Positions 1 through 25,975 are shown, numbered from the stretch's first letter. The stretch is 28,576 bases of DNA from Planctomycetota bacterium (GCA_038534175.1 JBCAXI010000001.1:1-28576); one strand, 5' to 3'. The notes: a model not told the origin generated them from the letters alone. A program made the numbers and translations.

Positions 1-1851
1 AGCTTCACCCCCATCGCGCAGAGCGAGCGCAACAAGTCGATCGGCGACCCGCGCGCGATCGTCTGGAACAGCGCGGGCACGCTCGGCTACGTCGCCGGCA
101 TGGGCTCGAGCAACGTGATCGTCATCGATGCCGCCGGCGCGCGCGCCGGACTCTCCGACACGATCAACGTCGGGCACGGGCCCACCGGCCTCGCGCTCGA
201 CGAGGCCCGAAGCCAGCTCTACGTCATGTGCAAGTTCGACAACGCGATCTCGGTCATCGACACCACCACCGAGCTCGAGTCGGCCTTCGTGCCCTTCCAC
301 GACTCGACGCCCAGCGCGATCATCCAGGGACGCAAGTTCTTGTATGACACGCACCTCACCTCGGGACTGGGCCAGGCCGCCTGCGCCTCGTGCCACGTCG
401 ACGCTCGCACCGACGGGCTCGCGTGGGATCTGGGCGACCCCTCGGGCGAGATGAAGGCCTTCGACCAGAACTGCCCCGACGGCGGCTGCGAGGACTGGCA
501 CCCCATGAAGGGGCCCATGACCACGCAGACCATGCAGGACATCATCGGACTCGAGCCGCACCACTGGCGCGGCGATCGCTTCGGCATCGAGGAGTTCAAC
601 GGTGCCTTCTTGAGCATCAACGGCGACGACCAGAACCTCACCGATCAAGAGATGCAACGCTTCGAGGACTTCCTCGCGACCATCCACTTCCCCCCCAGCC
701 CCTTCCGAGATCTCGACAACACCCTGCCCGATGACCTGCCGCTCGACGGGCACTACACCGTCGGACGCTTCGGCCCCGCCGGCCTGCCGCTGCCCAATGG
801 CGACGCCCAACGCGGCCTCGACCTCTACCTCAACGCCAACCTTGACGGCGTGGAGTGCGTCACCTGCCACACGCTCCCGACCGGGACCGGGCCCAACGGC
901 ACGTTCGGCTTCGGCGGCTTCACCGAGCTCCCCGCCGGGCCCAGCGGCGAGCTGCACCACGCCCTCGTCTCCGTCGACGGCTCCACCAACATCTCCATCA
1001 AGATCCCCCAGCTCCGCAACATGCACGAGAAGGTCGGCTTCAACACCACCCAGCTCGAGAACACCGCGGGCTTCGGCTACCTCCACGACGGCTCGGTCGA
1101 CTCCATCGAGCGGTTCATCGCCGAGCCCGTCTTCAGCATTGGCGGCGTGCAGGACCTCGCCGACATGACCGCCTTCATGCTCGCCTTCCCCGGCTCGGAC
1201 CTGCCCCTCGGCTCGCCCGCCAATCCGCTCATGCCTCCCGGCTCGCTGAGCCAGGACACGCACGCCGCGGTGGGCGCGCAGGTGACGCTCGATGGATCGG
1301 GCTCGCCCGCCACGCTCACCCAGCTCGTCGCGCTGGCCGACGCCGGCGCCATCGGTCTCATCGCCAAAGGCCGCGTCGGCGCCGACGCCCGCGGGTACCG
1401 CTACGACGGCGCCGGGGCGTTCCAGTCCGATCGCCTCGCCGACACGACCACCCTGGCGGCGCTCGAAGCGGGCGCCGCTGTCGGCGCCGAGGTCACCTTC
1501 ACGGCCGTCGCGATGGGCATGCAGACTCGCTTGGGGCTCGACCGCGATCTCGACGGCTTCTTCGACCGCGACGAGCTCGACGCCTGCGCCGACCCGGCCG
1601 ATCCGTTCAGCGATCCCACCAACAGCACCTGCTGCTTCGCCGACCTCACGACCGACGGCAGCTCCAACGGCGTCCCCGACGGCCTCGTCAGCCTGTCCGA
1701 CTTCTCGTACTACCTCAGCCTCTGGTCGACCGCCGATCCTGCCGCCGACCTGACCGTCTTCAACGCATGCCTGCCTGGCACGCCCGACGGCGATGTCACG
1801 CTGTCAGACTTCTCGTGCTATCTATCCGAATGGTCCGTCGGTTGCCCCTGA
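1..1851 (+). CDS. 5'-truncated beta-propeller (YVTN/YncE-like) + di-heme cytochrome c (CCP/MauG-like) protein with C-terminal dockerin-like module
   Basis: The frame is open from base 1 (SFTPIAQ...), so the gene starts upstream of the window. Propeller-type repeats (INVGHGPTGLALD...LYV, NAISVIDT). Two CxxCH heme motifs: CASCH 382-396 and CVTCH 856-870. IPQLRN...YLHDGS resembles the CCP/MauG PxLRN...YxHxG segment. Acidic DRDLDGFFDRDE repeat, then the 73-aa GCP-terminal module. Confidence 0.8.
   Translation, partial: SFTPIAQSERNKSIGDPRAIVWNSAGTLGYVAGMGSSNVIVIDAAGARAGLSDTINVGHGPTGLALDEARSQLYVMCKFDNAISVIDTTTELESAFVPFHDSTPSAIIQGRKFLYDTHLTSGLGQAACASCHVDARTDGLAWDLGDPSGEMKAFDQNCPDGGCEDWHPMKGPMTTQTMQDIIGLEPHHWRGDRFGIEEFNGAFLSINGDDQNLTDQEMQRFEDFLATIHFPPSPFRDLDNTLPDDLPLDGHYTVGRFGPAGLPLPNGDAQRGLDLYLNANLDGVECVTCHTLPTGTGPNGTFGFGGFTELPAGPSGELHHALVSVDGSTNISIKIPQLRNMHEKVGFNTTQLENTAGFGYLHDGSVDSIERFIAEPVFSIGGVQDLADMTAFMLAFPGSDLPLGSPANPLMPPGSLSQDTHAAVGAQVTLDGSGSPATLTQLVALADAGAIGLIAKGRVGADARGYRYDGAGAFQSDRLADTTTLAALEAGAAVGAEVTFTAVAMGMQTRLGLDRDLDGFFDRDELDACADPADPFSDPTNSTCCFADLTTDGSSNGVPDGLVSLSDFSYYLSLWSTADPAADLTVFNACLPGTPDGDVTLSDFSCYLSEWSVGCP
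1630..1848 (+). repeat. C-terminal dockerin-like (GC-type) module, copy 1
   Basis: CCFADLTTDG...PDGLVSLSDFSYYLSLW...ADLT...C-x15-CYLSEWSVGCP; 73 aa, aligns with four other copies in the window. Confidence 0.85.
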
Positions 1852-1935
1852 CCGGGCCGGCAAGGCGCCAGGGTTAACCATGGGTGAGGCCGAGGTTGAT
1901 TCGGACCTCGATATCTGTGATGCTGCGAGTTCTGT

Positions 1936-1958
1936 CGACCGGGCCGCCGGTCGCGTTT
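1936..1958 (+). terminator. possible weak intrinsic terminator
   Basis: 7-bp stem cgaccgg/ccggtcg with gccg loop, followed by cgttt. It lies about 85 nt after the stop at 1851 and the U-tract is short. Confidence 0.25.
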
Positions 1959-2050
1959 CCGGGGATGCGGGCGCTCTCGCCCGTGATCAGATCGTCCGAC
2001 GCAGAACGAGCCGAGGGCTCGCTGCGACTTCCAATGTGAAGGGATCATCG

Positions 2051-3742
2051 ATGTCTTGTCGCCTCACGCGCCGTTCCATGCGCGATGTCTCGCGTTGCCT
2101 CGCCGCCGCCATGGTCGTCGCGCCAGCCGGTCTCGCGCTCGCGCAGTCCGATCTACTCCCCGACATCGTCACGCGACAGAGCGATCTGTTCGACAACGAC
2201 ATCGTCACCAACATCTCGCCAGGACGCACGCACCTGCGCCTCTCCAACGGCACCGCCAACTCGGGCGTCGGCAAGCTCCACCTCTTCGGTGGACCCAGCA
2301 ACGGCGACGGCACCCAGCAAGTCTTCCAGCGCGTCTACCGCACCGACGGCTCCCACTGGGACCGCGTCGCGGGCAACTTCGTCTTCCACCCCGGGCACAA
2401 CCACATCCACTTCGAGGACTGGGCGATCTACCGACTGCGTGAGATCCTGCCCGGTGACGGCGTCGGCCCGATCGTCGCCGAGGGCAAGAAGACCTCCTTC
2501 TGCATCATCGACCTCGGCGTCTACGACAGCTCCATTCCCGGATTCCTGCCGGGCGGCGAGTTCAACACCTGCGGGTCCACCACGCAGGGCCTCAGCGTCG
2601 GTTGGATCGACATCTACTCCAAGTTCCTCACCGACCAGAACATCGACATCACCGACGTCCCCGACGGCGAGTACTGGCTTGAGTCCACCGCCAACCCCGA
2701 CGGCCTCGCGCTCGAGCACTCCCTCTCGAACAACACCGCCCGCGTCAAGGTCACCATCGACATCGATGGCGGCGGCGGCCCCGGCGGCGGCGAAACCCTG
2801 CCCGCGGACGGCTACGAGCCCAACGACAACTTCCAGCAGGTCCTCAGCCGGCCCGCCGGCGGGCCCAACAGCCCCAACCTCGGGCCCTGCAACCCCGACC
2901 GGCTCGTGGAGGGTCTCACGGTCGATGACTACTTCGACAGCGACCGCTTCAGCTTCTACATGCCCGCGACCGGCGGCCCGGGCGACTACATCGAGGCACG
3001 CTTCGACCACAGCGACGGCGACCTCGACGTGCGCCTCTACAACAGCTTCAACCACACCGTCGCCACCGCCGACAGCGCCGACGATGACGAGGTCATCTCG
3101 ATGAACGGGCGCCCCTCGGGGTGGTACACCATCGAGGTCTACGGCTTCGAGGACGCGGTCAACGAGTACGACCTCTACGTCAACCCCTCGGCCAACCTCG
3201 CGCCCACCGTCACCCCCCTCGCCCCGCTCACCGACGACGCCGTCGTCTACTCGCTCGAGACCTACACCACCGAGTGGAGCTTCTCCGACCCCGAGAACAA
3301 CGACGCCTGGGTCACCATCTACGCCAACGAGACCCAGGACTTCAACGGTGCGCTCCAACTGCCCACCAGCCTCCACACCCCCGCCGAGCAGGGCCTGCAC
3401 GTCATCAACACCACCTACCTCGCCGAGAACACCACGTATTGGATCTACCAGGAGATCACCGACGGCGGCACGACCAGCGGCGCTTGGGCCCCCGGTCGCC
3501 TGACCATGACCGGCCAGGCCTGCTCCGCGGCCGACATCACCACCGACGGCACCTCCAACGAGCTGCCCGATGGCGCCGTCACCATCTCCGACTTCTCCGT
3601 CTACCTCAACTGGTGGTCCACCGCCGATAGCCGCGCCGACATCACCGTGACCGGCGTGTGCAACCCGGGCAACGGCGGCGACGGCGTCGACCTCTCTGAC
3701 TTCTCCTGCTACCTCGACGCCTGGTCGCAGGGCTGCCCCTAA
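2051..3742 (+). CDS. secreted bacterial lysyl oxidase family protein with PPC-like domain and C-terminal dockerin-like module
   Basis: Start moved from 1793 to ATG 2051 (aaggga SD-like upstream; 2078 is an alternative). Signal peptide ends in ALA-Q. Cu-binding HPGHNHIH at 2387-2410, KTSFC (LTQ Lys, 2489-2491) and GWIDIY (LTQ Tyr, 2615-2617), followed by QNIDITDVPDGEYWL..NPD..E...NN as in the LOX catalytic domain. YEPND...DGDLDVRLY...YTIEVYGF is pre-peptidase C-terminal-like. Confidence 0.85.
   Translation: MSCRLTRRSMRDVSRCLAAAMVVAPAGLALAQSDLLPDIVTRQSDLFDNDIVTNISPGRTHLRLSNGTANSGVGKLHLFGGPSNGDGTQQVFQRVYRTDGSHWDRVAGNFVFHPGHNHIHFEDWAIYRLREILPGDGVGPIVAEGKKTSFCIIDLGVYDSSIPGFLPGGEFNTCGSTTQGLSVGWIDIYSKFLTDQNIDITDVPDGEYWLESTANPDGLALEHSLSNNTARVKVTIDIDGGGGPGGGETLPADGYEPNDNFQQVLSRPAGGPNSPNLGPCNPDRLVEGLTVDDYFDSDRFSFYMPATGGPGDYIEARFDHSDGDLDVRLYNSFNHTVATADSADDDEVISMNGRPSGWYTIEVYGFEDAVNEYDLYVNPSANLAPTVTPLAPLTDDAVVYSLETYTTEWSFSDPENNDAWVTIYANETQDFNGALQLPTSLHTPAEQGLHVINTTYLAENTTYWIYQEITDGGTTSGAWAPGRLTMTGQACSAADITTDGTSNELPDGAVTISDFSVYLNWWSTADSRADITVTGVCNPGNGGDGVDLSDFSCYLDAWSQGCP
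3521..3739 (+). repeat. C-terminal dockerin-like (GC-type) module, copy 2
   Basis: CSAADITTDG...PDGAVTISDFSVYLNWW...ADIT..VC-x15-CYLDAWSQGCP; 73 aa. Confidence 0.85.
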
Positions 3743-3777
3743 TCGTCGCCCGATAGAGCCAACACGCTCGAAGAGTC

Positions 3778-3816
3778 AACCCGCGTCGATGCACGCCGCA
3801 TCGACGCGGGTTTTTT
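3778..3816 (+). terminator. rho-independent terminator
   Basis: Perfect 15-bp stem aacccgcgtcgatgc (3778-3792) / gcatcgacgcgggtt (3798-3812), 5-nt loop, T-run 3811-3816, 35 nt after the stop at 3742. Confidence 0.85.
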
Positions 3817-3869
3817 CGTGCACACTCGCCGAGCGCCCCAGTACCCTCGCGCGACGGGAGGCGCGCCGC

Positions 3870-5243
3870 ATGACATACCGACAAACACGCCGCATCGATC
3901 GACTCGGTTCCGTGCTCACGATCGCCGTCGCGGCGGGGCTCGCGAGCGCGCAGCCGCTCGATCTTGTCTTCTTCTTCCATGATCAGACGCCCGACGTCAT
4001 CTACCGCGCGTGGGACGCCAACGGCGACGGCGACTGCCACGACCCGGGCGAGGTCACGGTCTTCGTCGACGACGCCGACATGCTGCTGGGCATCGACAAC
4101 GCGCAGGGCCTCGTCGCGCTCAGCGCCACTTCCATCATCGCGACGGACAACTTCGAGCCCGACAACATCGTGCGCTTCGTCGACACCAACCTCGACGGCG
4201 ACGCGCTCGATGCGGGCGAGGCCAGCGTGTTCTTCTCGGGCGACATCGGCGGGGGCGAGACGCTCTCGAATCCCACCGATCTGTTCGACGCGCCCGACGG
4301 ATCGTTCTGGATCGTCGATGTCACGGTCGGCGTCACGCCGGCGCCGCCCTCGCGCGTCTACCGGTTGGAGGATCTCAACGAAGACCAGGACGCCGACGAC
4401 CCCGGCGAGCGCACGGACTTTTTCGAGCTCGCGCCCGCAGGCATGGGCGGGCCGGCGATCTTCGATCTCGTCGTCGGCGCGGGCGGGGAGGTGTACGTCT
4501 GCGACCTCAGCGACCCGCAGCAGATCGAGTCGATCGACGTCATCGATCCCGCCGGCGTGGCGCGCACGGAGTGGCTCGGCAGCGACACGCTCTTCGGGCT
4601 GACGGGCCAGTATCTCTTCAGCGGCACCTACGAGCTGGAGATCGATCCCGCCCAGGGCGTCGTCTACTTCAGCCCGTCGACGCTCAACAACAACGCCGCC
4701 CTGCTCGGGGCCCGCGATCTCAACGGCAGCGGCGATATCGACGCGCCCAACGAGGTCGTGGTGTTCTTCGACGAGAACGCCTCGGCCGAGGGAATCAACG
4801 TTGGCTCGCTGCGCGACTTCAAGCGCCTGGACGACGGGCGGTTCGTCGCGACCGACGCCGGGCAAGATCGCGTCTACGTGCTCGAGGATCTGAACACCGA
4901 TTTCGACTTCAATGACGCGGGCGAGATCCGCGTGGCGTACGACGGCGACACCGCCGCGGCGAACGGAGAGCCGGACCTCATCCTGCCCCTCTCCATCGAC
5001 GCGGCACCGCTGCCCGCGGGCTGCGGGCCGGGCGATCTGACGACCACCGGCTCGGACCTTGGTGTGCCCGACGGGCTCGTCGATCTCTCGGACTTCTCGT
5101 ACTACTTGGGCCTCTGGGCCGCCGACGCGCCGCGCGCCGATGTCACGCCAGAGAGCACGTGCGACTTCAACGTGCCCGATGGCGCCGTCACGCTCTCAGA
5201 CTTCGCGTGCTACCTCAGCGTCTGGGCCACCGGCTGCCCCTGA
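3870..5243 (+). CDS. secreted probable beta-propeller protein with five DxNxDxD-type acidic loops and C-terminal dockerin-like module
   Basis: ATG 3870 with gggagg SD 8 nt upstream (the ORF track start at 3789 lies inside the terminator). Signal peptide ends in ASA-Q. Repeats DANGDGD, DTNLDGD, DLNEDQD, DLNGSGD and DLNTDFD are each followed by xxxxxE..xF. The catalytic function is not recognisable. Confidence 0.75.
   Translation: MTYRQTRRIDRLGSVLTIAVAAGLASAQPLDLVFFFHDQTPDVIYRAWDANGDGDCHDPGEVTVFVDDADMLLGIDNAQGLVALSATSIIATDNFEPDNIVRFVDTNLDGDALDAGEASVFFSGDIGGGETLSNPTDLFDAPDGSFWIVDVTVGVTPAPPSRVYRLEDLNEDQDADDPGERTDFFELAPAGMGGPAIFDLVVGAGGEVYVCDLSDPQQIESIDVIDPAGVARTEWLGSDTLFGLTGQYLFSGTYELEIDPAQGVVYFSPSTLNNNAALLGARDLNGSGDIDAPNEVVVFFDENASAEGINVGSLRDFKRLDDGRFVATDAGQDRVYVLEDLNTDFDFNDAGEIRVAYDGDTAAANGEPDLILPLSIDAAPLPAGCGPGDLTTTGSDLGVPDGLVDLSDFSYYLGLWAADAPRADVTPESTCDFNVPDGAVTLSDFACYLSVWATGCP
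5022..5240 (+). repeat. C-terminal dockerin-like (GC-type) module, copy 3
   Basis: CGPGDLTTTG...PDGLVDLSDFSYYLGLW...ADVT...C-x15-CYLSVWATGCP; 73 aa. Confidence 0.85.
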
Positions 5244-5516
5244 TCGCGTCTCGCGGGCTATCGGTCCATCGCGCAGGTTGCGGCGTGGGCGGTGCCCGAG
5301 CAGGGCCCAACCCTGGCGCCCCGCGCCATCGCCCAGTTTGCCGGAACATCCCGACCTTCGAACACGAAGGCTTGCCCGAAGCTGCAGTCGCCGCGCGACG
5401 GTTGGTGTCCACCCCCCTCTGGGGTAGTGTGTGCGAACCGCGTCTCGCGGGGCTCGTGGATGTTCTTCCGGGGTTCTTTCCCGGGCCAATCGGTCGTTAG
5501 AGAAGGGATCACGAGG

Positions 5517-6842
5517 ATGGGTTGTATGAAGACCGCCGCCACCGCGGCGTGCATCGTTTGTTTCGCTGGCGTCGCGATCGCCCAGAGCGCCGCGCCGCGG
5601 GCCATCGCCGACGCCCAGCCGCTGCACCGCTGGGCCCAGCACAACGTGCAGTTCCACGACAATGGCACCGTGACCGCCAACGGACAGGTCTGGGACAGCG
5701 CCGACGCGTACATCGCCAGCGATTACTTCCAGGCCAACGGGCTCCGCTGCCCCGTCGCGTTCACCGAGGCCGAGCTCATCGAGGCCGAGGCGTTCGCCCT
5801 CCGCGGCTCCACCGCCGACTGCAGCTCCGGCTCCACGAGCATCTTGCCCGAGTACGACCCTGCCACCGGCGATGTCCTGCGCATCCCTGTGGTCGTCCAC
5901 GTCATCCAGAACACCGGCGGCACTGGCTTCATCTCCGAGAGCCGCGTCCAGAGCCAGATCGACATCCTCAACGAGGACTTCCGCGCCCTGCCTGGCACCA
6001 ACGGTGCCCCAGGCGCCGACACCGGCATCGAGTTCTTCCTCGCCACCGAGGATCCCGGCGGCAACCCCACCAACGGCATCACCTACTCGACCAACAACAC
6101 CTGGTTCAACGATGGCGGCAGCTACTGGAACAGCCTCGCCTGGGACCCCAACCGCTACCTCAACATCTACACCAACTCCGCCAGCGGCAACCTCGGCTAC
6201 GTGCCCTTCCTTCCGCAGACCAACCCCGGCGCCATCGGCTCCAACTCCGACCGCGCCGTCGTGCTGCACTCCTCGTTCGGACGCAACGCGCCCATCGCCA
6301 ACTACGACCTCGGACGCACCGCGACGCACGAGGTCGGGCACTACCTGGGCCTCTTCCACACCTTCCAGTCCGGCTGCGGCAGCGCCTCCAGCTGCTACAC
6401 CACCGGCGACCGCATCTGCGACACCAACCCCGAGAACAGCCCCTTCTTCGGCTGCTCGGCTGGCCGATCGACCTGCGGCTCGTCCGACCCCATCGACAAC
6501 TACATGGACTACTCGTACGACGTCTGCATGAACAAGTTCACCCCAGAGCAGGCCAACCGCATGCGCTGCACCCTGTTCAACTACCGCTCGAGCCTGTATG
6601 TCATCGACGCGGTCGGGCCCTGCTCGCCCGCCGACGTCACGACCGACGCCACCAGCAACGGCGAGCCCGACGGGGCTGTCACGCTCTCCGACTTCTCGTT
6701 CTACCTGAGCCTCTGGTCGAGCGGCGATGCCGCTGCCGACATCACCACCATCAGCGTCTGCAACCCCGGCGCGGGCGGCGATGGCGTCGACCTGTCCGAC
6801 TTCTCGTGCTACCTCGCCACCTGGTCCGACGGCTGCCCCTGA
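5517..6842 (+). CDS. secreted M43 (pappalysin/ulilysin-like) zinc metalloprotease with C-terminal dockerin-like module
   Basis: Start at ATG 5517 or 5526 (SD-like aaggga / gagga), not 5292. Signal peptide ends in AIA-Q. Putative Cys-switch LRC. IPVVVHVI...I...RVQSQIDILNEDF, WDPNRYLNIY, GRTATHEVGHYLGLFHTF (HExxHxxGxxH at 6327-6359) and Met-turn NYMDY are typical of M43. Confidence 0.9.
   Translation: MGCMKTAATAACIVCFAGVAIAQSAAPRAIADAQPLHRWAQHNVQFHDNGTVTANGQVWDSADAYIASDYFQANGLRCPVAFTEAELIEAEAFALRGSTADCSSGSTSILPEYDPATGDVLRIPVVVHVIQNTGGTGFISESRVQSQIDILNEDFRALPGTNGAPGADTGIEFFLATEDPGGNPTNGITYSTNNTWFNDGGSYWNSLAWDPNRYLNIYTNSASGNLGYVPFLPQTNPGAIGSNSDRAVVLHSSFGRNAPIANYDLGRTATHEVGHYLGLFHTFQSGCGSASSCYTTGDRICDTNPENSPFFGCSAGRSTCGSSDPIDNYMDYSYDVCMNKFTPEQANRMRCTLFNYRSSLYVIDAVGPCSPADVTTDATSNGEPDGAVTLSDFSFYLSLWSSGDAAADITTISVCNPGAGGDGVDLSDFSCYLATWSDGCP
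6621..6839 (+). repeat. C-terminal dockerin-like (GC-type) module, copy 4
   Basis: CSPADVTTDA...PDGAVTLSDFSFYLSLW...ADIT..VC-x15-CYLATWSDGCP; 73 aa. Confidence 0.85.
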
Positions 6843-7046: not shown

Positions 7047-8369
7047 GTGGCGTCGATCGTCTTCTACTTCCAGGTTCACCAGCCCTTCCGCCTGCGCCGG
7101 TACTCGGTCTTCGACGCCGACCCGTTCTACTTCGAGGACCGCAAGAACGCCGAGATCTGCGAGAAGGTCGCCACCAAGTGCTACCGCCCGACGACCGAGC
7201 TCATCCTCGATCTCGTCAAGCGGCATAAGGGCAACTTCAAGGTGTCGTACGCCATCACCGGCGTCGTGCTCGACCAGTTCGAGCACTTCACCCCCGACGT
7301 GCTCGACCTGTTCAAGCGCCTCAACGACACCGGCTGCTGCGAGTTCGTCGCCGAGACCTACCACCACTCGCTCTCATTCCTGTACGACCACGCCGAATTC
7401 GTCAAGCAGGTCGACATGCACACCGAGCGGATCCAGGACCTCTTCGGCCAGACGCCCCGCGTCTTCCGCAACACCGAGCTCATCTACAACAACCAGCTCG
7501 CGCGCTTCCTCGCCTCCATGAAGAACAAGGACGGCACGCCCCGGTTCGCCGGCGCCCTCTGCGAGGGTGTCGATCGAATCCTCGGCGACCGAAGCCCCAA
7601 CTATGCCTATCGCCCCATCGAGGGCCTGGGCGGCGAGGTCCTCAAGGGCCCCGATGGCCGCGACTTCACGATGCTGCTCAAGAACTACCGGCTGAGCGAT
7701 GACATCGCGTTCCGGTTCTCAGACCGCGGCTGGAGCGAGTGGCCGCTGTCCGCCGACCGCTTCGCCCAGTGGGTCCACCAGATCAACGGCGACGGCTACC
7801 TCTGCAACCTCTTCATGGACTACGAGACCTTCGGCGAGCACCAGTGGGCCGACACCGGCGTCTTCCAGTTCCTCGACAAGCTCCCCGAGGCCATCTTCGA
7901 CATCGCCCCGGGCGAGAACCACTTCAACACGCCCAGCGAGGCCATCGCCCGGTTCGAGCCCGTCGGCGTCTACGACGTCCACGACACCATCTCGTGGGCC
8001 GACACCGAGCGTGACCTCACCGCCTGGCGCGGCAACGCCATGCAGCACAACGCCCTCGACGAGACCTACCGCGTCGGCGCGGTCGTCAAGAAGCGCCTGG
8101 CCGAGGCCGAGATCTCGGGCGACGACGAGGTCATCGCCCAGGCGAACTTCCTGCTCAACGACTGGCGCAAGCTCACCACCAGCGACCACTTCTATTACAT
8201 GTGCACCAAGTACTTCGCCGACGGAGACGTCCACAAGTACTTCAACCCCTACGACTCACCCTACGACAGCTACATCAACTTCATGAACGTGCTCGACAAC
8301 GTCCGCACCCGCTGCGCCGCGATCGCCGAGAAGCTGGGCGTCACGCCCGATGTCGCCGAGAAAGTCTGA
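7047..8369 (+). CDS. glycoside hydrolase family 57 (alpha-amylase/amylopullulanase-like)
   Basis: GTG start with ggagg SD. GH57 conserved regions YFQVHQP, ETYHHSL, FRNTELIY (nucleophile Glu), FMDYETFGEHQW (acid/base Asp), SWAD.ERD...W.GN and TSDHFYYM. Confidence 0.9.
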   Translation: MASIVFYFQVHQPFRLRRYSVFDADPFYFEDRKNAEICEKVATKCYRPTTELILDLVKRHKGNFKVSYAITGVVLDQFEHFTPDVLDLFKRLNDTGCCEFVAETYHHSLSFLYDHAEFVKQVDMHTERIQDLFGQTPRVFRNTELIYNNQLARFLASMKNKDGTPRFAGALCEGVDRILGDRSPNYAYRPIEGLGGEVLKGPDGRDFTMLLKNYRLSDDIAFRFSDRGWSEWPLSADRFAQWVHQINGDGYLCNLFMDYETFGEHQWADTGVFQFLDKLPEAIFDIAPGENHFNTPSEAIARFEPVGVYDVHDTISWADTERDLTAWRGNAMQHNALDETYRVGAVVKKRLAEAEISGDDEVIAQANFLLNDWRKLTTSDHFYYMCTKYFADGDVHKYFNPYDSPYDSYINFMNVLDNVRTRCAAIAEKLGVTPDVAEKV

Positions 8370-8406
8370 GCGCCGCCGCCCGCCGCGTCCATGGTCCTGA
8401 TAGGAC

Positions 8407-9033
8407 TCAACCGCCCCAGAGGGGGCGCGCCGGCACGCCCACGACGCGCTCGCCGTCGCTGACATCGTGCAGCACCGCCGAGCCCGCGCCGACGACACAG
8501 CGGTCGCCCACCTCGACCTTCGGCAGCACACGCGAGCCGACCCCGAGCAGCGCGTCGCGCCCCACCCGGACCACGCCGCCGAGCGCGACGCCAGGCGCGA
8601 TGTGCGCGTTCGCCCCGATGATATTGTGGTGCTCGACCACCGCCGCCGAGTTGATGATGCAGTGATCACCCAGGCGCGCGCCGGTGTGCACCACCGCGTG
8701 CGGCCCAACGAACACGCCCTTGCCGTACCCCGCCGTCGGGCTCACGTAGGCCTCGGGATGGACCACGCTGCTCGCGCCGTGGACCATCTCCAGCCCCGCG
8801 TCCAGCAGGTCGCGCCGCGTCTTCAGGTCGCCCAACGCAAGAATCCAGCTGTGCTCGCCGATCAGGTCGAAGTCGCTCAGCCCGCCGAGGTGGGGCAGCC
8901 CGAACGCCTCGCACGCCGGCGGCGACTGGACGTCATCAAGCACGCCGGCGATGTCGACATCGAGCAGCTTGGCGGCCTCGGCGACGACCTCCCCGTGCCC
9001 GCCGCCCCCGATGATGACCAGTGATCGCGCCAT
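8407..9033 (-). CDS. NeuD/PglD-family sugar O/N-acetyltransferase (left-handed beta-helix)
   Basis: N-terminal IIGGGGHGEVV, GVLDD, VVHP.A.VS, hexapeptide repeats, IN..AVVEH, HIAPG..LGG.V.VG and C-terminal VGVPARP. Confidence 0.88.
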   Translation of the reverse strand: MARSLVIIGGGGHGEVVAEAAKLLDVDIAGVLDDVQSPPACEAFGLPHLGGLSDFDLIGEHSWILALGDLKTRRDLLDAGLEMVHGASSVVHPEAYVSPTAGYGKGVFVGPHAVVHTGARLGDHCIINSAAVVEHHNIIGANAHIAPGVALGGVVRVGRDALLGVGSRVLPKVEVGDRCVVGAGSAVLHDVSDGERVVGVPARPLWGG

Positions 9034-9039
9034 GCTGCC

Positions 9040-9058
9040 AGCCTACCCGGCGTAGAGT
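9040..9058. promoter_or_regulatory. back-to-back -10 hexamers of divergent, probably leaderless promoters
   Basis: Minus strand TAGGCT (9045-9040) is 6 nt before ATG 9033; plus strand TAGAGT (9053-9058) is 5 nt before ATG 9064. Neither gene has an SD, and the intergenic gap is only 30 bp. Confidence 0.6.
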
Positions 9059-9063
9059 CGTCC

Positions 9064-9945
9064 ATGGAGCCCATCCGCGTCGCCGCCGTGCGGTATCTCA
9101 ACACCCTCCCGCTCATCGAGGGGCTGGAATCGGTCTCCGGCTGCGAGCTGGAGCTGACCGCGCCCTCGCGGATCGCGGGCCTCGTCCGCTCCGGCGACGC
9201 CGACATCGGGCTCGTCTCGATCGTCGACCTCGCCAGCCAGCCCGGCGCCGCCGAGACGCCCCTCATCGCCCTCCCGGTGGGCATGATCGGCTGCGATGGC
9301 CCGACGCAAACCGTGCGGCTTTATTCCCAGACGCCACCGAGCGCCGTCACCAAGCTGCACGCCGACACCGACTCCCACACCTCCGTGCTGCTCGCACGGT
9401 TGCTGCTTCGCGCGGTGCACGGGGCCAACGCGGAGACGGTCGACTTCGACGTCCGCGAGCGGGTCGCCCGCGCCGGCGCCGCGGCGGCCGAGGAGTGGCC
9501 CGAGACGCTGCTCATGATCGGCGACAAGGTCATCACCGACGCGCCCGAGCCGGAGCGTTATGCGCACGAGATCGATCTGGGCGAGGCGTGGCACGCGTGG
9601 ACCGCCCTGCCGTTCGTGTACGCCGTGTGGGCCTGCCGCGCGAGCGCGTGGGACGAGGGCGACGCGTCCCGCCGTCGCCTTCAGATGGGCGCCGCGCTGC
9701 TAGAGCGGCAGCGGCTGCACAACCGCGCGCGCCTCGACGCCATCGCGCGCCAACGCGCTCCCGAGCACCGCTGGCCGATCGACCGCGCGATCGAGTACAT
9801 CGGCGAGCGGCTCCGATACGACTTCGATGACGGCGCGCGTCGTGGCGCCGAGCGGTTCTTCGCCGAGGCCCACGCCGCCGGCCTGCTTCCGTCGAGCCAG
9901 CTCCGCGTCGCGACCGGCGTGTCGCCCGCGCCCACCCCGACCTAG
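9064..9945 (+). CDS. mqnA: chorismate dehydratase (futalosine menaquinone pathway), MqnA family
   Basis: VRYLNTLPL, PS..A..V..G.ADIGLVS, IGCDG, DSHTSVLL, MIGD and DLGEAW..WTALPFVYAVW. Confidence 0.88.
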   Translation: MEPIRVAAVRYLNTLPLIEGLESVSGCELELTAPSRIAGLVRSGDADIGLVSIVDLASQPGAAETPLIALPVGMIGCDGPTQTVRLYSQTPPSAVTKLHADTDSHTSVLLARLLLRAVHGANAETVDFDVRERVARAGAAAAEEWPETLLMIGDKVITDAPEPERYAHEIDLGEAWHAWTALPFVYAVWACRASAWDEGDASRRRLQMGAALLERQRLHNRARLDAIARQRAPEHRWPIDRAIEYIGERLRYDFDDGARRGAERFFAEAHAAGLLPSSQLRVATGVSPAPTPT

Positions 9946-9963
9946 CGCGAGCGAGCACACGCC

Positions 9964-11712
9964 ATGCCGCCACTCCCCGAGCTGCGCGTCTCGTCGCTCG
10001 CCGAACTAGCGGCTCAGCTGCGGTTCGCGCCACACCTCAAGCTGCTCGACGACATCGATCGCATCGAACGCCTCGCTGCCGATGTCGACCCCGAGGCCAA
10101 CTACCCCGAGGAGTGGATCGAGTTCCGTGTGACCGGCCTGCGGCGCGATCTCCCCGAGCCGATCACAGTCGCCGGCGCCGCGCTCCTCGCTGATCTATCT
10201 TCGCTTGCCGAGCGTCTCTGCGAGCAGGCGCGATTGACCGAGGCGGAGCTCGCCGCGCGTCTCTCCGAGCAGGGCCGGCAACCAGCGCTACACGCCGACG
10301 CGCTCGCCGAGCGATGGAACGTCTCGCGCAAGACCGTCGATCGATGCCGAAAGCGCGGGCTAATCGGTCGAAGGATTCGCGGTGCCAACGGCAAGACGCG
10401 CATCGTCTTCACGCCCGAGAGCGTGCGCGTCTACGAGTCATCTCAACGAGAAAGCCTCGAACGCGCCGCCGAGTTCTCACGCATCGAACCAGCGATCGAG
10501 CTCCGCATGCTCCGCCGAGCCGAGCGATACCACGAGCTGTTCGGCTGCACGCTCAATCAGTGCGCCGAGCGCCTCGCCAAGCGCTACCAACGCTCGCTCG
10601 AGGCGGTCCGCCAGATCCTTCGACGCCACGACGCCTCGGGCGCCGCGCCGATCTTCGACGACCCCGGCTCCCTCACGCGCTTGCAGCGCCGCGCCCTCCT
10701 ACGCGCCGAAGCCCGGGGGATCGACCCCGCGACACTCGCGCGACGCTACCGACGCACGCGCCCCACCATCGCCCGCGCGATCCACCTCGAGCGGGCCCGG
10801 CGGCTGTGGGCGTGGCGCGACGCGGGCGCGCTCGAGGCGCCACGCCTCGCGACGTTCGATCGCGACGACGCGCACGATGTCCTGCTCGGTGCGCCTGCGG
10901 TGCGCGCCATCGGCGTGGCCCCGGCGCCGAGCAACGTGGGCGCCCTCCTCGCGTTGGCCCGGTCCACGCCCGCGACGCCCGCGGACGACGAGCAGGCGTG
11001 CGTGATCGCGTTGCACTTCTGCCGAGCCACCGCCTCCGACCTCGCCTCCGATCTCGACCGCGAGCAGCCCGAGGCCCGGACCATCGACCGCGCCGAGGCG
11101 ATGCTCCGCCTCGCCTCGCAGATCTGGGCGTGGCTCGTTCGCGCGCAGATGGGCCTCGTGCTCGCAACGATCGAGCGGCGACACGAGCGCCCGAGCGAGG
11201 CGATGCGCACGGACGACTGGCTCGGGGCCTGGCGATCCGGCGTCGCGTCGGCCTGGCCGGCGATCGGGTCGTTCGACGCCACGCGCGGCGGCCGGCTCGC
11301 GGCGCCCGTCGGGCTTGCCGTCGACCGCGCCCTCGCCGCCGCGTCGCCCGATCCCACCACCCGAGCCACGCCCCGCCTGCGGACCGACGAGCCGATCGAG
11401 GACTGGCGCAACGCGCCGCCATGGAGCGCCGCGCTCCAGCCCGATCGACGCCTCCGACCCAGACCCGAGCGCGACGCCGACGCAGGACGCCCGCCCTGGT
11501 GGTCAGACGCCGACGCCGACGCGCGACGCGTGCTCGGATGGCGCTTCGGATACCCGGTGGAGGGCTCGCGCGAGGCGCCGATGACACTCGAAGCGCTCGC
11601 CGAGCGTCTCAGCACGGGTCGTGCGCACGCGCCGCGACGTCTGCGCATCGCGCTCCGCACGCTGCTCGAAGCCGCGCGCCTCGAAACGTCCAGCGCCCCC
11701 GGACCCGAGTAG
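9964..11712 (+). CDS. planctomycete-type long sigma-70-like protein with N-terminal HTH domains; sigma regions 2 and 4 degenerate
   Basis: The N-terminus (QLRFAP...E.L...VDPE..YP.EWI.FRVT; LAERWNVSRKTVDR.RKRGL; RLAKRYQRSLEAVRQILRRHD; LARRYRRTRPTI) matches my recollection of the Planctomycetota long sigma-70 family. Remnants of region 2 (LVRAQMGLVLAT; SFDATRGGRL) and region 4 (VLGWRFGY...MTLEALAERL) are present. Confidence 0.65.
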   Translation: MPPLPELRVSSLAELAAQLRFAPHLKLLDDIDRIERLAADVDPEANYPEEWIEFRVTGLRRDLPEPITVAGAALLADLSSLAERLCEQARLTEAELAARLSEQGRQPALHADALAERWNVSRKTVDRCRKRGLIGRRIRGANGKTRIVFTPESVRVYESSQRESLERAAEFSRIEPAIELRMLRRAERYHELFGCTLNQCAERLAKRYQRSLEAVRQILRRHDASGAAPIFDDPGSLTRLQRRALLRAEARGIDPATLARRYRRTRPTIARAIHLERARRLWAWRDAGALEAPRLATFDRDDAHDVLLGAPAVRAIGVAPAPSNVGALLALARSTPATPADDEQACVIALHFCRATASDLASDLDREQPEARTIDRAEAMLRLASQIWAWLVRAQMGLVLATIERRHERPSEAMRTDDWLGAWRSGVASAWPAIGSFDATRGGRLAAPVGLAVDRALAAASPDPTTRATPRLRTDEPIEDWRNAPPWSAALQPDRRLRPRPERDADAGRPPWWSDADADARRVLGWRFGYPVEGSREAPMTLEALAERLSTGRAHAPRRLRIALRTLLEAARLETSSAPGPE

Positions 11713-11715
11713 GCT
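11710..11715 (+). promoter_or_regulatory. putative -10 hexamer for leaderless gatB
   Basis: TAGGCT 7 nt before ATG 11723, no SD. The TAG is also the upstream stop codon, so this case is confounded. Confidence 0.4.
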
Positions 11716-11722
11716 GGCTCCC

Positions 11723-13219
11723 ATGGCAGCGATCACCCACCAAGAGCTCATCGTGGGCATGGAGGTCCACGTCGAGCTCCGCACCCGAAGCAAGATGTTC
11801 GCGCGCGTTGCGTCGCCGGCGCATCCAGAGTTTCACAACGCGCCGCCCAACGCGCTCATCGACCCGGTCGTGCTCGCGCTGCCCGGGGCCTTGCCGGTCA
11901 TGAACGAGCGAGCGGTCGAGCTCTCGGCGATGGTCGGCCTCGCGCTCGGTTGCACGATCAACAGGCGATCCAAGTGGGACCGCAAGAGCTACTTCTACCC
12001 CGATCTGCCCAAGGCGTACCAGATCTCGCAGTACGACCTGCCGCTGTGCGAGCACGGATCGGTCGACGTGCTCGATGATGACGGCGAGGTGATGCAGGCC
12101 GTGCGCATCGAGCGGGCGCATCTGGAGGAGGACGCCGGCAAGCTGTTGCACGAGGCCCCCGGGGGCGGCGCGGTGGACGGATCGCTCGTCGATCTCAATC
12201 GCGCGGGCACGCCGCTGCTCGAGATCGTCACGGCGCCGGACGTTCGCAGCGCCGACGTCTGTGAGCGGTTCGCCCGATCGCTGCGCCGCCTGTGCCGGCA
12301 CCTCGGCGCCACCGAGGGGGTCATGCAGCAGGGGCACATCCGCTTCGAGCCCAACATCAATCTTAAGCTCACCTTGGACGACGGGCGCGAAGTGCGCACA
12401 CCGATCGTCGAGGTGAAGAATCTGAACTCGTTCAAGGCGCTGCGGGGCGCCGTGGAGTACGAGGCGCGCACGCAGGCCAAGCGTTGGCAAGAGGATGGGC
12501 GCGAGTGCGGCCCCGGCGCCAAAGGCACGCGCGGTTGGGATGACGCGCGCGGCGTCACCATCGCCCAGCGCGAAAAAGAAGACGCCCACGACTACCGGTA
12601 CTTCCCCGATCCGGACCTGCCGCCGGTCGAGATCGACGACGCGTGGCTTGAGCGGGTGCGCATCGGCGTGTGCGAGCATCCGGACGCGCGTCGCGTCCGA
12701 TGGATGCGAGACCGTGGGCTCAACGCCAAGGACGCGACCGCCCTGGTGGAAGAGCGAGCCACCGCCGAGCTGTACGACGACGCGGTGCAGGCCGGCGGCG
12801 GCGCGCGCACGCTCGCCAACCTCCTCTTGCAATCGGCGGCGAAGCGCGCCAACGAGCGCGGCGTTGAGATTCACGAGCTCGGGCTCTCGCCCGAGAAGCT
12901 TGCCGCGATCGCCCAGATGCGTGATCGCGGCGATATCAGCGCGGCCTCGGCCGACGAGCTCGTCGGACTCGTGACGCAGAGTGAGGACGACCCGGCGTTG
13001 ATTGCCGAGGCCCGCGGCATGATCGTCGTGCGCGATGAGGGCCAGCTTGCCGCGTGGTGCGACGAGGTCATCGCGCAGCACGCGGGCATCGTGGAGCAGA
13101 TCCGCGGCGGCAAGCAGCAGGCGGCCGGGCGACTCATCGGCGAGGTCATGAAGAAGAGCGGGGGCGCCGCCGACGCCAAGACCGTGCGCGCCATGCTGCT
13201 CGAACGCATCGGAGACTAA
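11723..13219 (+). CDS. gatB: Asp-tRNA(Asn)/Glu-tRNA(Gln) amidotransferase subunit B
   Basis: IVGMEVHVELRTRSKMF, LALPGALPVMN, DRKSYFYPDLPKAYQISQYD, HLEEDAGK, DLNRAGTPLLEIVT, EVKNLNSF, DYRYFPDPDLPP and the C-terminal YqeY-like GEVMKKSGG. Start moved from 11621 to ATG 11723. Confidence 0.97.
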   Translation: MAAITHQELIVGMEVHVELRTRSKMFARVASPAHPEFHNAPPNALIDPVVLALPGALPVMNERAVELSAMVGLALGCTINRRSKWDRKSYFYPDLPKAYQISQYDLPLCEHGSVDVLDDDGEVMQAVRIERAHLEEDAGKLLHEAPGGGAVDGSLVDLNRAGTPLLEIVTAPDVRSADVCERFARSLRRLCRHLGATEGVMQQGHIRFEPNINLKLTLDDGREVRTPIVEVKNLNSFKALRGAVEYEARTQAKRWQEDGRECGPGAKGTRGWDDARGVTIAQREKEDAHDYRYFPDPDLPPVEIDDAWLERVRIGVCEHPDARRVRWMRDRGLNAKDATALVEERATAELYDDAVQAGGGARTLANLLLQSAAKRANERGVEIHELGLSPEKLAAIAQMRDRGDISAASADELVGLVTQSEDDPALIAEARGMIVVRDEGQLAAWCDEVIAQHAGIVEQIRGGKQQAAGRLIGEVMKKSGGAADAKTVRAMLLERIGD

Positions 13220-13258
13220 GGCCTCAGATCGCGGGAGCGAGTGTGCGCGTGGTGCGGT

Positions 13259-13690
13259 TCACTCTGGCTCGGCGCTCGTCTGCTCGCGCATCGACCGGGC
13301 CCGATCCAGCAGCTCGGCCTCGAAGGCGTCGCCCGAGAGCTCGCCGCTCTCCACGCGCGCCTCGGGCGTGGGCGCGAGCTCGAAGTGCCACTCTTGTCGA
13401 TTCTCCAGCCGCACCGGCGCGGCCGCCGCGAGCAGATCGATCACCGGCCACTCGTACATCGGCGCCTTCGCCTGGCGGCTCTCGTGCACCGACTCGTACC
13501 CCTCCAACTCGAGCCGCACGTCGTAGTGCCCGTGGAACAGAAACTCGGTCTCCACCGGCGTGCGCCCGAGCTGCTGGTCGTTGAGCGTGACCAGCGCGCC
13601 GGGCGGCTCGCTGGTGATCTGGATCATCCGCTCGACGCATCCGCCCAGCGACAACCCGCACAGCACAAGACCCGCAACGCGTCCGCTCAT
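13259..13690 (-). CDS. PEGA-domain lipoprotein
   Basis: Lipobox LGG-C, followed by the PEGA signature IQITSEPPGALVTLNDQQLGRTPV...YDVRLELEGYE. Its ATG overlaps the lptB stop (ATGA, 13687-13690). Confidence 0.85.
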   Translation of the reverse strand: MSGRVAGLVLCGLSLGGCVERMIQITSEPPGALVTLNDQQLGRTPVETEFLFHGHYDVRLELEGYESVHESRQAKAPMYEWPVIDLLAAAAPVRLENRQEWHFELAPTPEARVESGELSGDAFEAELLDRARSMREQTSAEPE

Positions 13691-14484
13691 GCGCGCTCTC
13701 CCGTGCCCAACCGCGGCGCCTCGTCCGAACGCTCGCGCGGCGGCAGGTCGTCGAACTCATCGCCTCTGAACAGCGAGCCGAGGTACACCCGGCGCACCAG
13801 CTCGTCGTTGATCAGCGACCTCGGGTCGCCCTCGGCGAACTTCTTGCCGCTGTCGATGATGTACGCCCGATCACATACCCGCAGCGTCTGCTGCACGTTG
13901 TGGTCGGTGATGAGGAACGCGATGCCCGTCTCGGCCAGCTCGCGAAGCTCTCGTTGCAGGTCCTCGACCGCGATCGGGTCGACGCCGCTGAACGGCTCGT
14001 CGAGCAGGATGAGCTTGGGCTGCGTGATGAGCGCCCGAGCGATCTCCAGCTTGCGCCGCTCGCCGCCCGAACAAGTGCGCGCGAGCTGGTTGGCCTTGTG
14101 CGTCAGCCCGAAGCGGTCCAGCAGCTCGGCGGCCTTCTTTCTGCGCATGCCCCGCGGCATGGACAGCGTCTCGAGAATTGCCAGCAGGTTCTGCTCGCAG
14201 GTCATCCGCTGGAAGACGCTCGGCTCCTGGCTGAGGTAGCCCATGCCCCGGCGGGCGTGCCGGTACATCGGCAGGCCCGTGACCTCGTCGCCGTCGAAGA
14301 ACACGCGTCCGTCATCGGCGTCGATCATGCCGATGGTCATGCGGAAGCTGGTCGTCTTGCCGGCGCCATTGCGACCCAGCAGGCCCACGATCTCGGCGGG
14401 GTCGACGTGCAGCGAGACGCCATCGACCACCATTCGGCCGCCGAACGACTTGCGCAGATTGTGGGCTTCCAGCAGCGGTGGCAC
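13687..14484 (-). CDS. lptB: LPS export ABC transporter ATP-binding protein
   Basis: Walker A GRNGAGKT, GMGYLSQEPSVF, signature SGGERRKLEIARAL, ILLDEPFSGVDP, ITDHNV.QTL.VCDRAYII and VRRVYLG..F. Confidence 0.95.
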   Translation of the reverse strand: MPPLLEAHNLRKSFGGRMVVDGVSLHVDPAEIVGLLGRNGAGKTTSFRMTIGMIDADDGRVFFDGDEVTGLPMYRHARRGMGYLSQEPSVFQRMTCEQNLLAILETLSMPRGMRRKKAAELLDRFGLTHKANQLARTCSGGERRKLEIARALITQPKLILLDEPFSGVDPIAVEDLQRELRELAETGIAFLITDHNVQQTLRVCDRAYIIDSGKKFAEGDPRSLINDELVRRVYLGSLFRGDEFDDLPPRERSDEAPRLGTGERA

Positions 14485-14490
14485 GCGGGG

Positions 14491-24835: not shown

Positions 24836-25975
24836 ATGATCGACCAACGAGTGGCGGGGGTGTGCCTTGGTGTGGTGTTCGCGGCGGTGGCGGCGGCCCA
24901 GCCGCGGGTGCTGTTTGTCCGAGGCGCCGAGCGCAGCGGCGGCTTTTTCGAGGCCGGCAACGACGCGGGTCTCACCGAGCAGCTCGCCGATATCAACAAC
25001 ACGGCGACCGGCGGCGGCAACCACGGCTGGTTTGAGTTCGCCGAGGCGCTCCGCGCCGATGGCTTCGTCGTTGAGCAGATCATCGAGCCGCTCGAGGTTG
25101 GGGCGCCCTCCACGGGCCAGACCGACGGCGCCCCGATCGCGTTCGAGTCGATCGATCTGAGCGTCTACGACGCGCTCGTCTTCGGCTCCAACAACGCGGT
25201 CTACCCGAGCGCCAGCGTCGACGCGGTGGAGGCGTACGTGCGTACCGGCGGCGCCGCGATGTTCATCAGTGATGCCAATTTCGGCTCCGACTGGCCCGAC
25301 GCCTCGACCTCGGACCAGTTCTTTCTCGATCGCTTCGGCTGGGTCATGCAGCAGGATCGCGGCACCTATCGCCTCGGCCGCGCCGACGGCGACTTCCTCG
25401 AGCCCGACGCCGCCATCCTCGCTAACGTCGACGACATCGACGGCGAGGGCGTCTCGCCCATCGTTGTGCCGACGACGGATCTGCCCGGCGTCGAGAGCCT
25501 GCTCGTCGTGCGCGCAAACCCGGGCAGCCAGACGCGCAACAACGACTCGACCAGCGGGCAGGGCAGCAGCCGGCCCGTCGGGCCGCAGGACGCCGCGCTC
25601 GCCGTCGCGTTCGTCGAGTGCGGCCGCATCGCCGGGCACTACGACCGCAACACGTTCTTCAATCTCAACGGCGCCGGCACCAGTATCAACCGCTTCGACA
25701 ACATGGCCTACGCGGTGCAGCTCGTCCGCTGGCTGGCGATCGACCCGGCGGACATCACGTCGGAGGGCGTGTGCGACGCGACGGGTGCCGCCAGCGCCGT
25801 CGATGGCGCCGTCACGCTGAGCGATTTCGGTTGTTACCTGAGCGAGTGGTCGAATAACACCGTCGCCGCGGACATCACCACCGACGGCGCCTGCCAGCCC
25901 GGCTTCGGCGGCGACGGCGTGACGCTGAGCGATTTCTCGTGCTACCTGTCGCGGTGGGCGCAGAGCTGCCCGTGA
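24836..25975 (+). CDS. secreted protein, probable class I GATase-like/ThuA-like alpha-beta domain, with C-terminal dockerin-like module
   Basis: ggaggt SD; signal peptide ends in AAA-Q. PRVLF..., HGW..FAEALRADGFVVE, LSVYDALVFGS and AVEAYVRTGGAAMFISD are characteristic of GATase-like folds. Ends in ...SCYLSRWAQSCP. Confidence 0.75.
   Translation: MIDQRVAGVCLGVVFAAVAAAQPRVLFVRGAERSGGFFEAGNDAGLTEQLADINNTATGGGNHGWFEFAEALRADGFVVEQIIEPLEVGAPSTGQTDGAPIAFESIDLSVYDALVFGSNNAVYPSASVDAVEAYVRTGGAAMFISDANFGSDWPDASTSDQFFLDRFGWVMQQDRGTYRLGRADGDFLEPDAAILANVDDIDGEGVSPIVVPTTDLPGVESLLVVRANPGSQTRNNDSTSGQGSSRPVGPQDAALAVAFVECGRIAGHYDRNTFFNLNGAGTSINRFDNMAYAVQLVRWLAIDPADITSEGVCDATGAASAVDGAVTLSDFGCYLSEWSNNTVAADITTDGACQPGFGGDGVTLSDFSCYLSRWAQSCP
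25742..25972 (+). repeat. C-terminal dockerin-like (GC-type) module, copy 5 (variant)
   Basis: DPADITSEGVC-x19-CYLSEW...ADITTDGAC-x15-CYLSRWAQSCP. It lacks the N-terminal Cys and has a Cys pair in both halves. Confidence 0.8.

Follow-up and report, generated by a model that had tools for sequence, protein, structure and literature searches.

A literature search on dockerins in Phycisphaerae and planctomycetes yielded only the 'planctosome' proposal, a hypothesis for freshwater Phycisphaerae (Nemodlikiaceae) in which dockerin-borne peptidases (M12B, M14) are held at the cell surface for peptide degradation, and which is based on pairs of Pfam cohesins and dockerins on identified scaffold proteins (Andrei et al., 2019; PMC6461901). 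A further family, the GC-type dockerins, lies outside Pfam and is known only as a database model (NCBIfam NF041540, a profile of 67 positions with a cut-off of 29 bits); no paper was found on 'GC-type dockerin'. Short-loop GC-type dockerins are present in sister genera, as in genome G155 (54 aa; C-R-A-D-L-D-G-D-G ... A-G-C), where canonical 12-residue EF-hand loops occur in a duplicated architecture with a first and a last Cys and without internal Cys residues, at the C-terminal end of diverse secreted proteins.

The window analyzed here is the whole stretch of 28,576 nucleotides from a marine Phycisphaerae whose genome is 84.6% complete. It begins with four consecutive genes on the plus strand and, in agreement with the earlier note, the translation of each shows the same Cys-containing module followed by a stop. 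Gene 1 (1..1851), whose 5' end is open at the contig edge, encodes beta-propeller repeats beside a MauG/MbnH-like di-heme domain with two CxxCH motifs, and its module (1630..1848, plus strand, 73 aa) matches NF041540 over profile positions 1-67 of 67 with 64.9 bits and contains one internal Cys pair, located in the second half. Gene 2 (2051..3742) combines a Lysyl_oxidase and a PPC domain with a module of 73 aa (3521..3739, plus strand; 52.8 bits); the longest open reading frame runs from 1793, and translation probably begins at an ATG that precedes a signal peptide, at 2051 or 2078. In gene 3 (3870..5243) a six-bladed NHL/SGL-like beta-propeller, assigned by an Atlas structure match (TM 0.6-0.83), precedes a 73-aa module (5022..5240, plus strand; 62.1 bits). 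The ATG at 3870 is its likely start because the Atlas record starts there and because the longest open reading frame (3789) overlaps a terminator. Gene 4 (5517..6842) encodes a Peptidase_M43 metalloprotease with a module of 73 aa (6621..6839, plus strand; 54.6 bits), and here too translation probably begins at an ATG preceding a signal peptide (5517 or 5526), within a longest open reading frame from 5292. The unrelated cargo that had been described, di-heme enzyme, lysyl oxidase, propeller and M43 protease, was recovered in full by domain or structure matches, and when all module-bearing genes of the genome were searched with BLAST, the cargo parts of genes 1-4 showed no similarity to one another. 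The fifth gene at 24836 with its variant module was likewise found. Gene 5 (24836..25975, plus strand) encodes a signal peptide, a cargo domain without Pfam match and a module that amounts to 76 aa in translation (25745..25972, plus strand; 42.2 bits), has a Cys pair in both halves, lacks the N-terminal Cys and ends in SCP.

All five window copies therefore match NF041540, with 42.2-64.9 bits, four of them at positions 1-67 and the fifth at 2-67, and they share with the model a C-terminal location, a Cys near the module's N-terminus, a G-C(-P) ending, a duplicated loop-helix and a Phycisphaerae host. The earlier note had suspected a novel module, unless it scored fully within an already described GC-dockerin model that includes the Cys pair. 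Since all copies score essentially full-length inside NF041540, and the NCBI name 'GC-type dockerin domain-anchored protein' is already attached to near-identical proteins with the Cys pair, novelty is not supported, essentially on the ground that the earlier note itself had named. The scores decrease with the number of internal Cys pairs, from about 72-78 bits for copies with none to about 58-70 bits with one and about 39-67 bits, mostly 42-50, with two. As pair-free copies are the top-scoring ones, the consensus of NF041540, judged indirectly in this way, seems to have no Cys pair between loop and helix. When species genomes were scanned for the Cys-pair pattern with two motifs, one with and one without the helix Cys, matches occurred in only two of 185,579, this genome aside (its own records were perhaps omitted). 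At the level of sequence patterns, the Cys pair is a marker of a narrow sub-clade.

The dockerin-like character proposed for the module is supported. An AlphaFold2 model of the gene 4 module (pLDDT 95.4) consists of two main helices (residues 23-34 and 59-71) without strands, and an unfiltered comparison of this structure with 48,161 PDB chains (VIA) placed dockerins at the first five ranks and at nine of the first 12, the best being 2vn5_B (Z 3.9, rmsd 2.9 Å, 54/56 residues); on an absolute scale, the Z values of the dockerin matches (3.9-2.8) are low. With Foldseek, the PDB yielded only a weak match to a type II dockerin (E 4.6). Comparison of profiles with hhalign connected the long-loop module to the short-loop GC-type dockerins as homologs (98.9%, E 3e-17), with loop inserts of 8 and 9 residues, and the short-loop profile in turn found EF-hand proteins and, at E 3.7e-5, the dockerin chain 5lxv_B among PDB sequences; the long-loop profile gave no significant match against PDB sequences. 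With the cellulosomal type I/II dockerins (PF00404; 2vn5_B, 2ccl_B, 2y3n_D) the module shares the overall fold, the duplicated F-hand topology and the acidic ligands at loop positions 1, 5 and 12. In contrast to them, it has loops that are 8-9 residues longer and two or three inferred disulfides, its cargo consists of peptidases and not of CAZymes, no cohesin was detected in this genome or in most of the family, and it is not matched by PF00404. For PF00404 Dockerin_1 no match was obtained in the five window proteins at E≤0.01, and the single match in the genome lies elsewhere, on contig C38.

Within the duplicated loop-helix ('F-hand') architecture, the lengthened Ca-loops noted earlier are confirmed by the 8-9 extra residues relative to the short-loop relatives. 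In this genome's lineage, the insert of about 9 residues lies between ligand positions 3 and 5 and is either polar (T-S-N-G-x-P) or provides a Cys paired to a Cys on the next helix, and the Asp residues at loop positions 1, 5 and 12 are invariant or conserved in at least 90%. Lengthened loops recur across the family, with inserts that are genus-specific. The exact length of 73 aa holds for genes 1-4, counted from the Cys that opens C-x3-D-[LIV]-T through the final Pro, and is not a rule of the family: the 44 GCP-ending copies of the genome are 71-76 aa long, with a mode of 73 (17 copies). GCP or SCP followed by a stop ends all five window copies, and GCP ends 44 of the 69 copies in the genome. 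A Cys precedes the first loop in four of the five window copies, gene 5 being the one without, and both this Cys and that of the terminal G-C(-P) are conserved (co-occurrence of first versus last Cys across the genome copies, 51/1/12/5) and invariant in the short-loop relatives. The ends of a dockerin fold adjoin, and the first Cys could pair with the terminal one.

The internal C-x15-C had been called invariant, which it is not, as 61 of the 69 copies have it in the second half and 27 of the 69 in the first. Its reading as a likely disulfide is strengthened by the perfect or near-perfect co-occurrence of loop and helix Cys: in the second half 61 copies have both, none has only one and eight have neither, and in the first half the corresponding counts are 27 both, 0 and 2 for either one, and 40 neither. 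Being all-or-none, the loop-to-helix pair probably forms a disulfide, as far as covariation of residues can tell, and this pair is the sole distinctive detail. The window modules are 49-72% identical to one another and do not form a distinct subgroup.

The helix face, where a near-invariant LS had been pointed out, is indeed uniform across the copies of this genome (L-S-D-F-S-x-Y-L). Generally, the helix residues are uniform per genome and differ between genera, with I-F-D-F-L-A-F-Q-N in short-loop forms versus L-S-D-F-S-x-Y-L-S-x-W in the module, and in one genome (G353) a single helix face is common to long- and short-loop forms. Such uniform faces could also reflect concerted evolution or recent expansion instead of a shared partner.

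A profile search of the genome gave 73 six-frame matches, corresponding to 69 open reading frames. With about 70 tails in the genome, there is nothing exceptional about the window's array, which is just another instance of a known tag, the GC-type dockerin family. About 2% of this genome's genes carry the tag, chiefly in peptidases and further exoenzymes, and sister genomes have 100-200 such genes; within the family the module is present in 59 of 61 genomes, often with 100-200 copies each, compared with 20 of 301 genomes in a phylum-wide sample. Some family genomes of over 90% completeness have no more than 0-2 copies. In public data, the profile retrieved 5,134 cluster representatives at E≤0.001. 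The records of close relatives are those of Phycisphaeraceae and Planctomycetota. Signal-peptide-like N-termini were found in 38 of the 49 open reading frames with complete 5' ends. The cargo is mostly proteolytic rather than carbohydrate-active, as had been proposed, the Pfam tally being dominated by peptidases (S8 in six proteins, Trypsin_2 in three, M43 in two and M14, M64 and M10 in one each, among others). The peptidase theme is like that of the 'planctosome', whereas no cohesin was detected here and the tag is of the GC type.

In all 69 open reading frames the module is located at the C-terminal end, followed by 0-24 residues, and 44 stop exactly at G-C-P. Together with dozens to hundreds of unrelated Sec-exported carriers per genome and a cohesin partner that was not found, this location would also suit a C-terminal export or sorting signal, read by an outer-membrane translocation or processing machinery such as those acting on T9SS CTDs or PEP-CTERM/exosortase substrates, rather than a docking module. 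We consider such a signal unlikely. Sortase-type signals (PEP-CTERM, LPXTG, GlyGly-CTERM) combine a short motif with a hydrophobic transmembrane segment and a basic tail, whereas the module is a polar folded domain of 73 aa that ends in GCP and whose tail lacks a hydrophobic stretch; the T9SS CTD is a beta-sandwich of about 70-100 aa, whereas the confident model of the module shows helices and long loops but not a single strand. Against this alternative, the module is a folded Ca-loop domain of a helical, dockerin-like type with neither a transmembrane segment nor a beta-sandwich, and the exact end is explained by a terminal Cys that closes the fold against the first Cys. Exosortase is nearly universal in the class (100 of 101 genomes), with the module or not; no complementary distribution is seen, and the comparison says little on whether the module replaces PEP-CTERM anchoring. 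No candidate machinery was identified.

Docking of the cohesin type, for which the earlier note had suggested a search for cohesin-like scaffoldins, was not supported. At a threshold of E≤1, PF00963 cohesin matched nothing in this genome, at its completeness of 84.6%, and was found in only 4 of the 61 family genomes. The planctomycete cohesins obtained in this way were turned into a lineage-specific profile, which detected members in only 6 of the 61 family genomes and none in this genome, and a phmmer comparison of the cohesin-bearing open reading frames with all open reading frames of this genome gave no match. No cohesin was found in 57 of 61 family genomes, for all their 100-200 modules each. 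Together with the conservation of the acidic Ca-type loops, this would fit a module that anchors its cargo in a Ca2+-dependent manner to a non-protein ligand (surface glycan, exopolysaccharide, peptidoglycan or polysaccharide substrate) and needs no protein receptor. This seems rather improbable to us, as a lineage-specific and genome-uniform helix face is the pattern expected of a co-evolving protein interface and as the dockerins with solved complexes bind proteins. Modules might also bind one another without a scaffoldin, which would lead to homotypic clustering of many enzymes. This would fit, indirectly, with the lack of a receptor in the cohesin searches of this genome and of the 61 family genomes and with the near-identity of the modules that many proteins of a genome carry; characterised dockerins are not known to self-assemble, and we regard homotypic binding as highly improbable.

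We favor, with a probability of roughly 0.6, the reading that the tail is a GC-type dockerin, a C-terminal tag of one Phycisphaerae family that holds exported cargo on a common non-cohesin surface receptor. The carrier proteins would be exported via Sec signal peptides, the module would fold after export from the cytoplasm, binding Ca2+ and forming two or three disulfides, and the genome-uniform helix face would hold the cargo, mostly peptidases, on one candidate non-cohesin receptor at the surface. We infer Ca2+ binding, disulfides and surface location of the module, as well as its function as a shared surface tether. If so, the tag probably governs the surface retention of digestive enzymes in these abundant marine heterotrophs. 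Experiments could start from the Cys pairs, which are all-or-none, and from the helix face, which is specific to each genome. More tentatively, and with a good deal of doubt, GC-type dockerins may serve the whole family as the principal means of tethering proteins, without cohesins, with a uniform helix face in each genome that co-evolves with a non-cohesin surface receptor and, in this sub-clade, with enlarged loops that are disulfide-locked to the helix. In that event, the locked loops might lessen the Ca2+ dependence of docking, and discovery of the receptor would establish a new way of displaying enzymes on the cell surface.

A Ser/Thr kinase-like family, the only repeated neighbour of module genes (six contigs), was set aside because its recurrence is close to a rough chance expectation for which about 60 such kinases in the genome were assumed. 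With regard to the array itself, the earlier note had proposed that the five window proteins assemble on one receptor, or through one dedicated export or anchoring route, into a surface complex of oxidative and proteolytic enzymes. Adjacency on one strand does hold for four of the genes, and module genes cluster far above chance, with 19 adjacent same-strand pairs genome-wide versus 1.3 expected from random placement. Against such a complex, the module is shared by about 70 proteins whose genes are spread across the genome, the window modules are no subgroup at their 49-72% identity, and gene 5 lies 18 kb from the array, past housekeeping genes. Moreover, the intergenic gaps in the array amount to 130-270 nt, and the region between genes 2 and 3 contains a strong intrinsic-terminator-like hairpin (3778..3812, plus strand) with a 15-bp stem, 10 GC pairs and a T-run. 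With this terminator, genes 1-4 do not form one operon, and the array comprises two transcription units or more. A complex specific to the five proteins is therefore very unlikely, and the four-gene array is one of many such clusters in the genome.

The assembly that contains contig C1 comprises 3.13 Mb in 546 contigs and is 84.6% complete. The first base of the window falls within gene 1, the first of four consecutive ORFs on the plus strand (positions 1-6842), and a fifth copy of the module is carried by gene 5 (24836-25975). Translations of all five ORFs revealed a stop codon directly after the Cys-containing module. With the first Cys and the terminal Pro as its limits, the module has 73 aa in each of genes 1 to 4. 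In gene 5 it measures 76 aa, the first Cys is absent, the end is SCP and both halves possess a Cys pair. The cargo consists of two CxxCH motifs and propeller repeats (gene 1), Lysyl_oxidase and PPC (gene 2), an NHL/SGL-like six-bladed propeller (gene 3) or Peptidase_M43 (gene 4), and among these four cargo portions no pair showed detectable similarity. The earlier note's description of a shared 73-aa module on unrelated cargo, its cargo identities and the variant in gene 5 was sound. Likely start codons lie just upstream of the signal peptides, at 2051/2078 for gene 2, 3870 for gene 3 and 5517/5526 for gene 4. Directly 3' of gene 2 a strong intrinsic-terminator-like hairpin is predicted on the plus strand (3778-3812; 15-bp GC-rich stem with 10 GC pairs, T-run), and because the longest ORF of gene 3 would start inside it, the ATG at 3870 is favoured for that gene. 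Given this hairpin, the four-gene array is not a single operon. The DNA between array and gene 5 (7047-23869) is of housekeeping type, encoding a GH57 enzyme (7047-8369), a hexapeptide acyltransferase (8407-9033, minus strand), a sigma-70-region-4/HTH protein (9964-11712), GatB (11621-13219) and an ammonium transporter (22517-23869, minus strand), besides long ORFs without a Pfam match (13900-15012; 16246-18318, minus strand; 19574-21874).

All five modules match the NCBIfam model NF041540 (dockerin_GC, 'GC-type dockerin domain-anchored protein') with 42-65 bits, the curated cut-off being 29 bits, and the matches cover profile positions 1-67 of this 67-position model in four modules and 2-67 in that of gene 5. 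No Pfam model recognises the module in the module-bearing proteins. Also, NCBI gave the GC-type dockerin name to MEO0483265.1 and MEO0482275.1, two near-identical proteins from a related MAG, both with the internal Cys pair. The module belongs to a family that was already catalogued, and the novelty claimed earlier, with membership in a described GC-dockerin model named as the finding against it, has to be given up. The dockerin reading itself was right and agrees with the predicted structure. AlphaFold2, using an 88-sequence alignment, gave a model with a pLDDT of 95.4 and helices at residues 23-34 and 59-71 connected by a short turn. Foldseek matches in the PDB were weak (best match a type II dockerin, E 4.6). 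In an unfiltered structural alignment with 48,161 chains, dockerins occupied ranks 1-5 and nine of the top twelve, with 2vn5_B as best match (Z 3.9, rmsd 2.9 Å, 54/56 residues aligned); for the predicted model this enrichment is clear, and small Z values are expected for a 74-residue domain. Loop positions 1, 5 and 12 are occupied by Asp in all or almost all copies, and Ca2+ binding by the loops is plausible.

The module has a duplicated loop-helix architecture. The form found in sister genera has only 54 aa; its first Cys is invariant, its loops are EF-hand loops of the textbook 12 residues, and it terminates in G-C. This short form matches EF-hand proteins and one dockerin chain among PDB sequences. 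Its hhalign comparison with the window's form (98.9% probability, E 3e-17) placed an 8-residue insert in one loop of the latter and a 9-residue insert in the other. Such inserts are common across the family and genus-specific, with modules of up to 78-83 aa in the genomes G353, G326 and G335, and therefore the lengthened loops, thought earlier to be unusual here, are not special to this genome; the NF041540 model accommodates them. G353 (loci L223-L242) encodes 78-aa long-loop and 54-aa short-loop GC-dockerins together, both with the same helix residues, D-F-F-x-Y-L-D-L-F, and thus loop length is not coupled to the putative contact face. In two module-bearing proteins, on contigs C90 (L150) and C57 (L144), internal canonical short EF-hand or dockerin-like repeats precede the C-terminal GC-type module.

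The distinctive feature of the copies in this genome is the internal loop-helix Cys pair. Among 69 paralogues, which are not independent, loop and helix Cys occur together in 27 first halves and are both absent from 40, with two cases of the helix Cys only and none of the loop Cys only; for second halves the numbers are 61 with both, eight with neither and none with just one. This all-or-none pattern in both halves is as a disulfide predicts. The C-x15-C pair noted earlier in the second half is hence a likely disulfide, but it is not invariant, missing as it is from 8/69 copies. Copies without an internal pair obtain the highest NF041540 scores (about 72-78 bits) and two-pair copies mostly the lowest (about 39-50 bits, two reaching 66-68), so the NF041540 consensus appears to lack the loop and helix Cys. 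One subgroup of two-pair modules (contigs C4, C57, C274, C287, C305, C383, C469) does not stop at GCP and continues with a conserved G-G-C-D-G-D-P-x-T-P plus one or two residues. A scan of 185,579 species genomes with two motifs, with and without the helix Cys, from which records of the genome under study were possibly left out, gave hits outside this genome in no more than two species genomes, the pair being abundant in JBCBZM01 and limited to few copies in CAYQAD01. One or two pairs were present in 91 of the best 150 metagenomic cluster representatives.

NF041540 gave 73 six-frame matches in this genome, 72 of them above cut-off. Our own module HMM retrieved 69 ORFs, all with the module at the C-terminus (69/69) and 44 stopping exactly at GCP. 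The exact length of 73 aa, although correct for genes 1 to 4, is only the mode of a range of 71 to 76 aa genome-wide. Module genes form clusters (19 same-strand neighbour pairs observed, 1.3 expected), contig C6 having seven in a row, and most arrays mix unrelated cargo. The domain was found in 59/61 sampled genomes of the same taxonomic family, many with 100-250 first-look candidates each, and in 20/301 genomes of a phylum-wide sample. Searched against 1.84 billion proteins, the long-loop profile retrieved 5,134 cluster representatives at E<=0.001, of which 691 remain at E<=1e-10; the best 150 listed carry the match at the C-terminus almost without exception. Present throughout this genome and in its relatives at large, the module does not define a window-specific complex, contrary to the dedicated five-protein assembly proposed in the earlier note. 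Four family genomes, each >90% complete (G310, G320, G321, G327), contain zero or one GC-dockerin match and their relatives dozens to hundreds, so that these four offer natural near-nulls for receptor profiling.

Signal-peptide-like N-termini were recognised in about three quarters of those module ORFs whose 5' ends are complete. A Pfam scan of 63 full-length module-bearing proteins detected Peptidase_S8 in six, FG-GAP-type repeats in four, Trypsin_2 in three, Peptidase_M43 in two and M14, M64 and M10 in one each; glycosidases were isolated cases, which bears out the suggested proteolytic rather than carbohydrate-active theme. This peptidase cargo echoes the 'planctosome' idea put forward for other Phycisphaerae (PMC6461901). 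The cohesin search that had been proposed yielded no Pfam cohesin in this genome (84.6% complete) and detected the domain in only four of 61 family genomes, a lineage-specific cohesin profile reaching six of the 61; the absence of cohesins and the covarying Cys pair are the points worth keeping. Within a genome, the helix residues at dockerin contact-face positions hardly vary; from genus to genus they do. This pattern fits one co-evolving partner per genome; concerted evolution could also generate such uniformity. We favour, with a probability of roughly 0.6, a Ca- and disulfide-stabilised tether by which the cargo would be held on a common, non-cohesin surface receptor. As rivals, the module might be a sorting signal or a glycan anchor, or modules might self-associate. 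On six contigs (C144, C173, C234, C278, C383, C70) module genes have as neighbours Ser/Thr kinase-like ORFs that combine the motif G-x-G-x-x-G ... A-x-K with a C-terminal hydrophobic region, an adjacency compatible with chance if kinases are, as we assume, as abundant as usual in planctomycetes.
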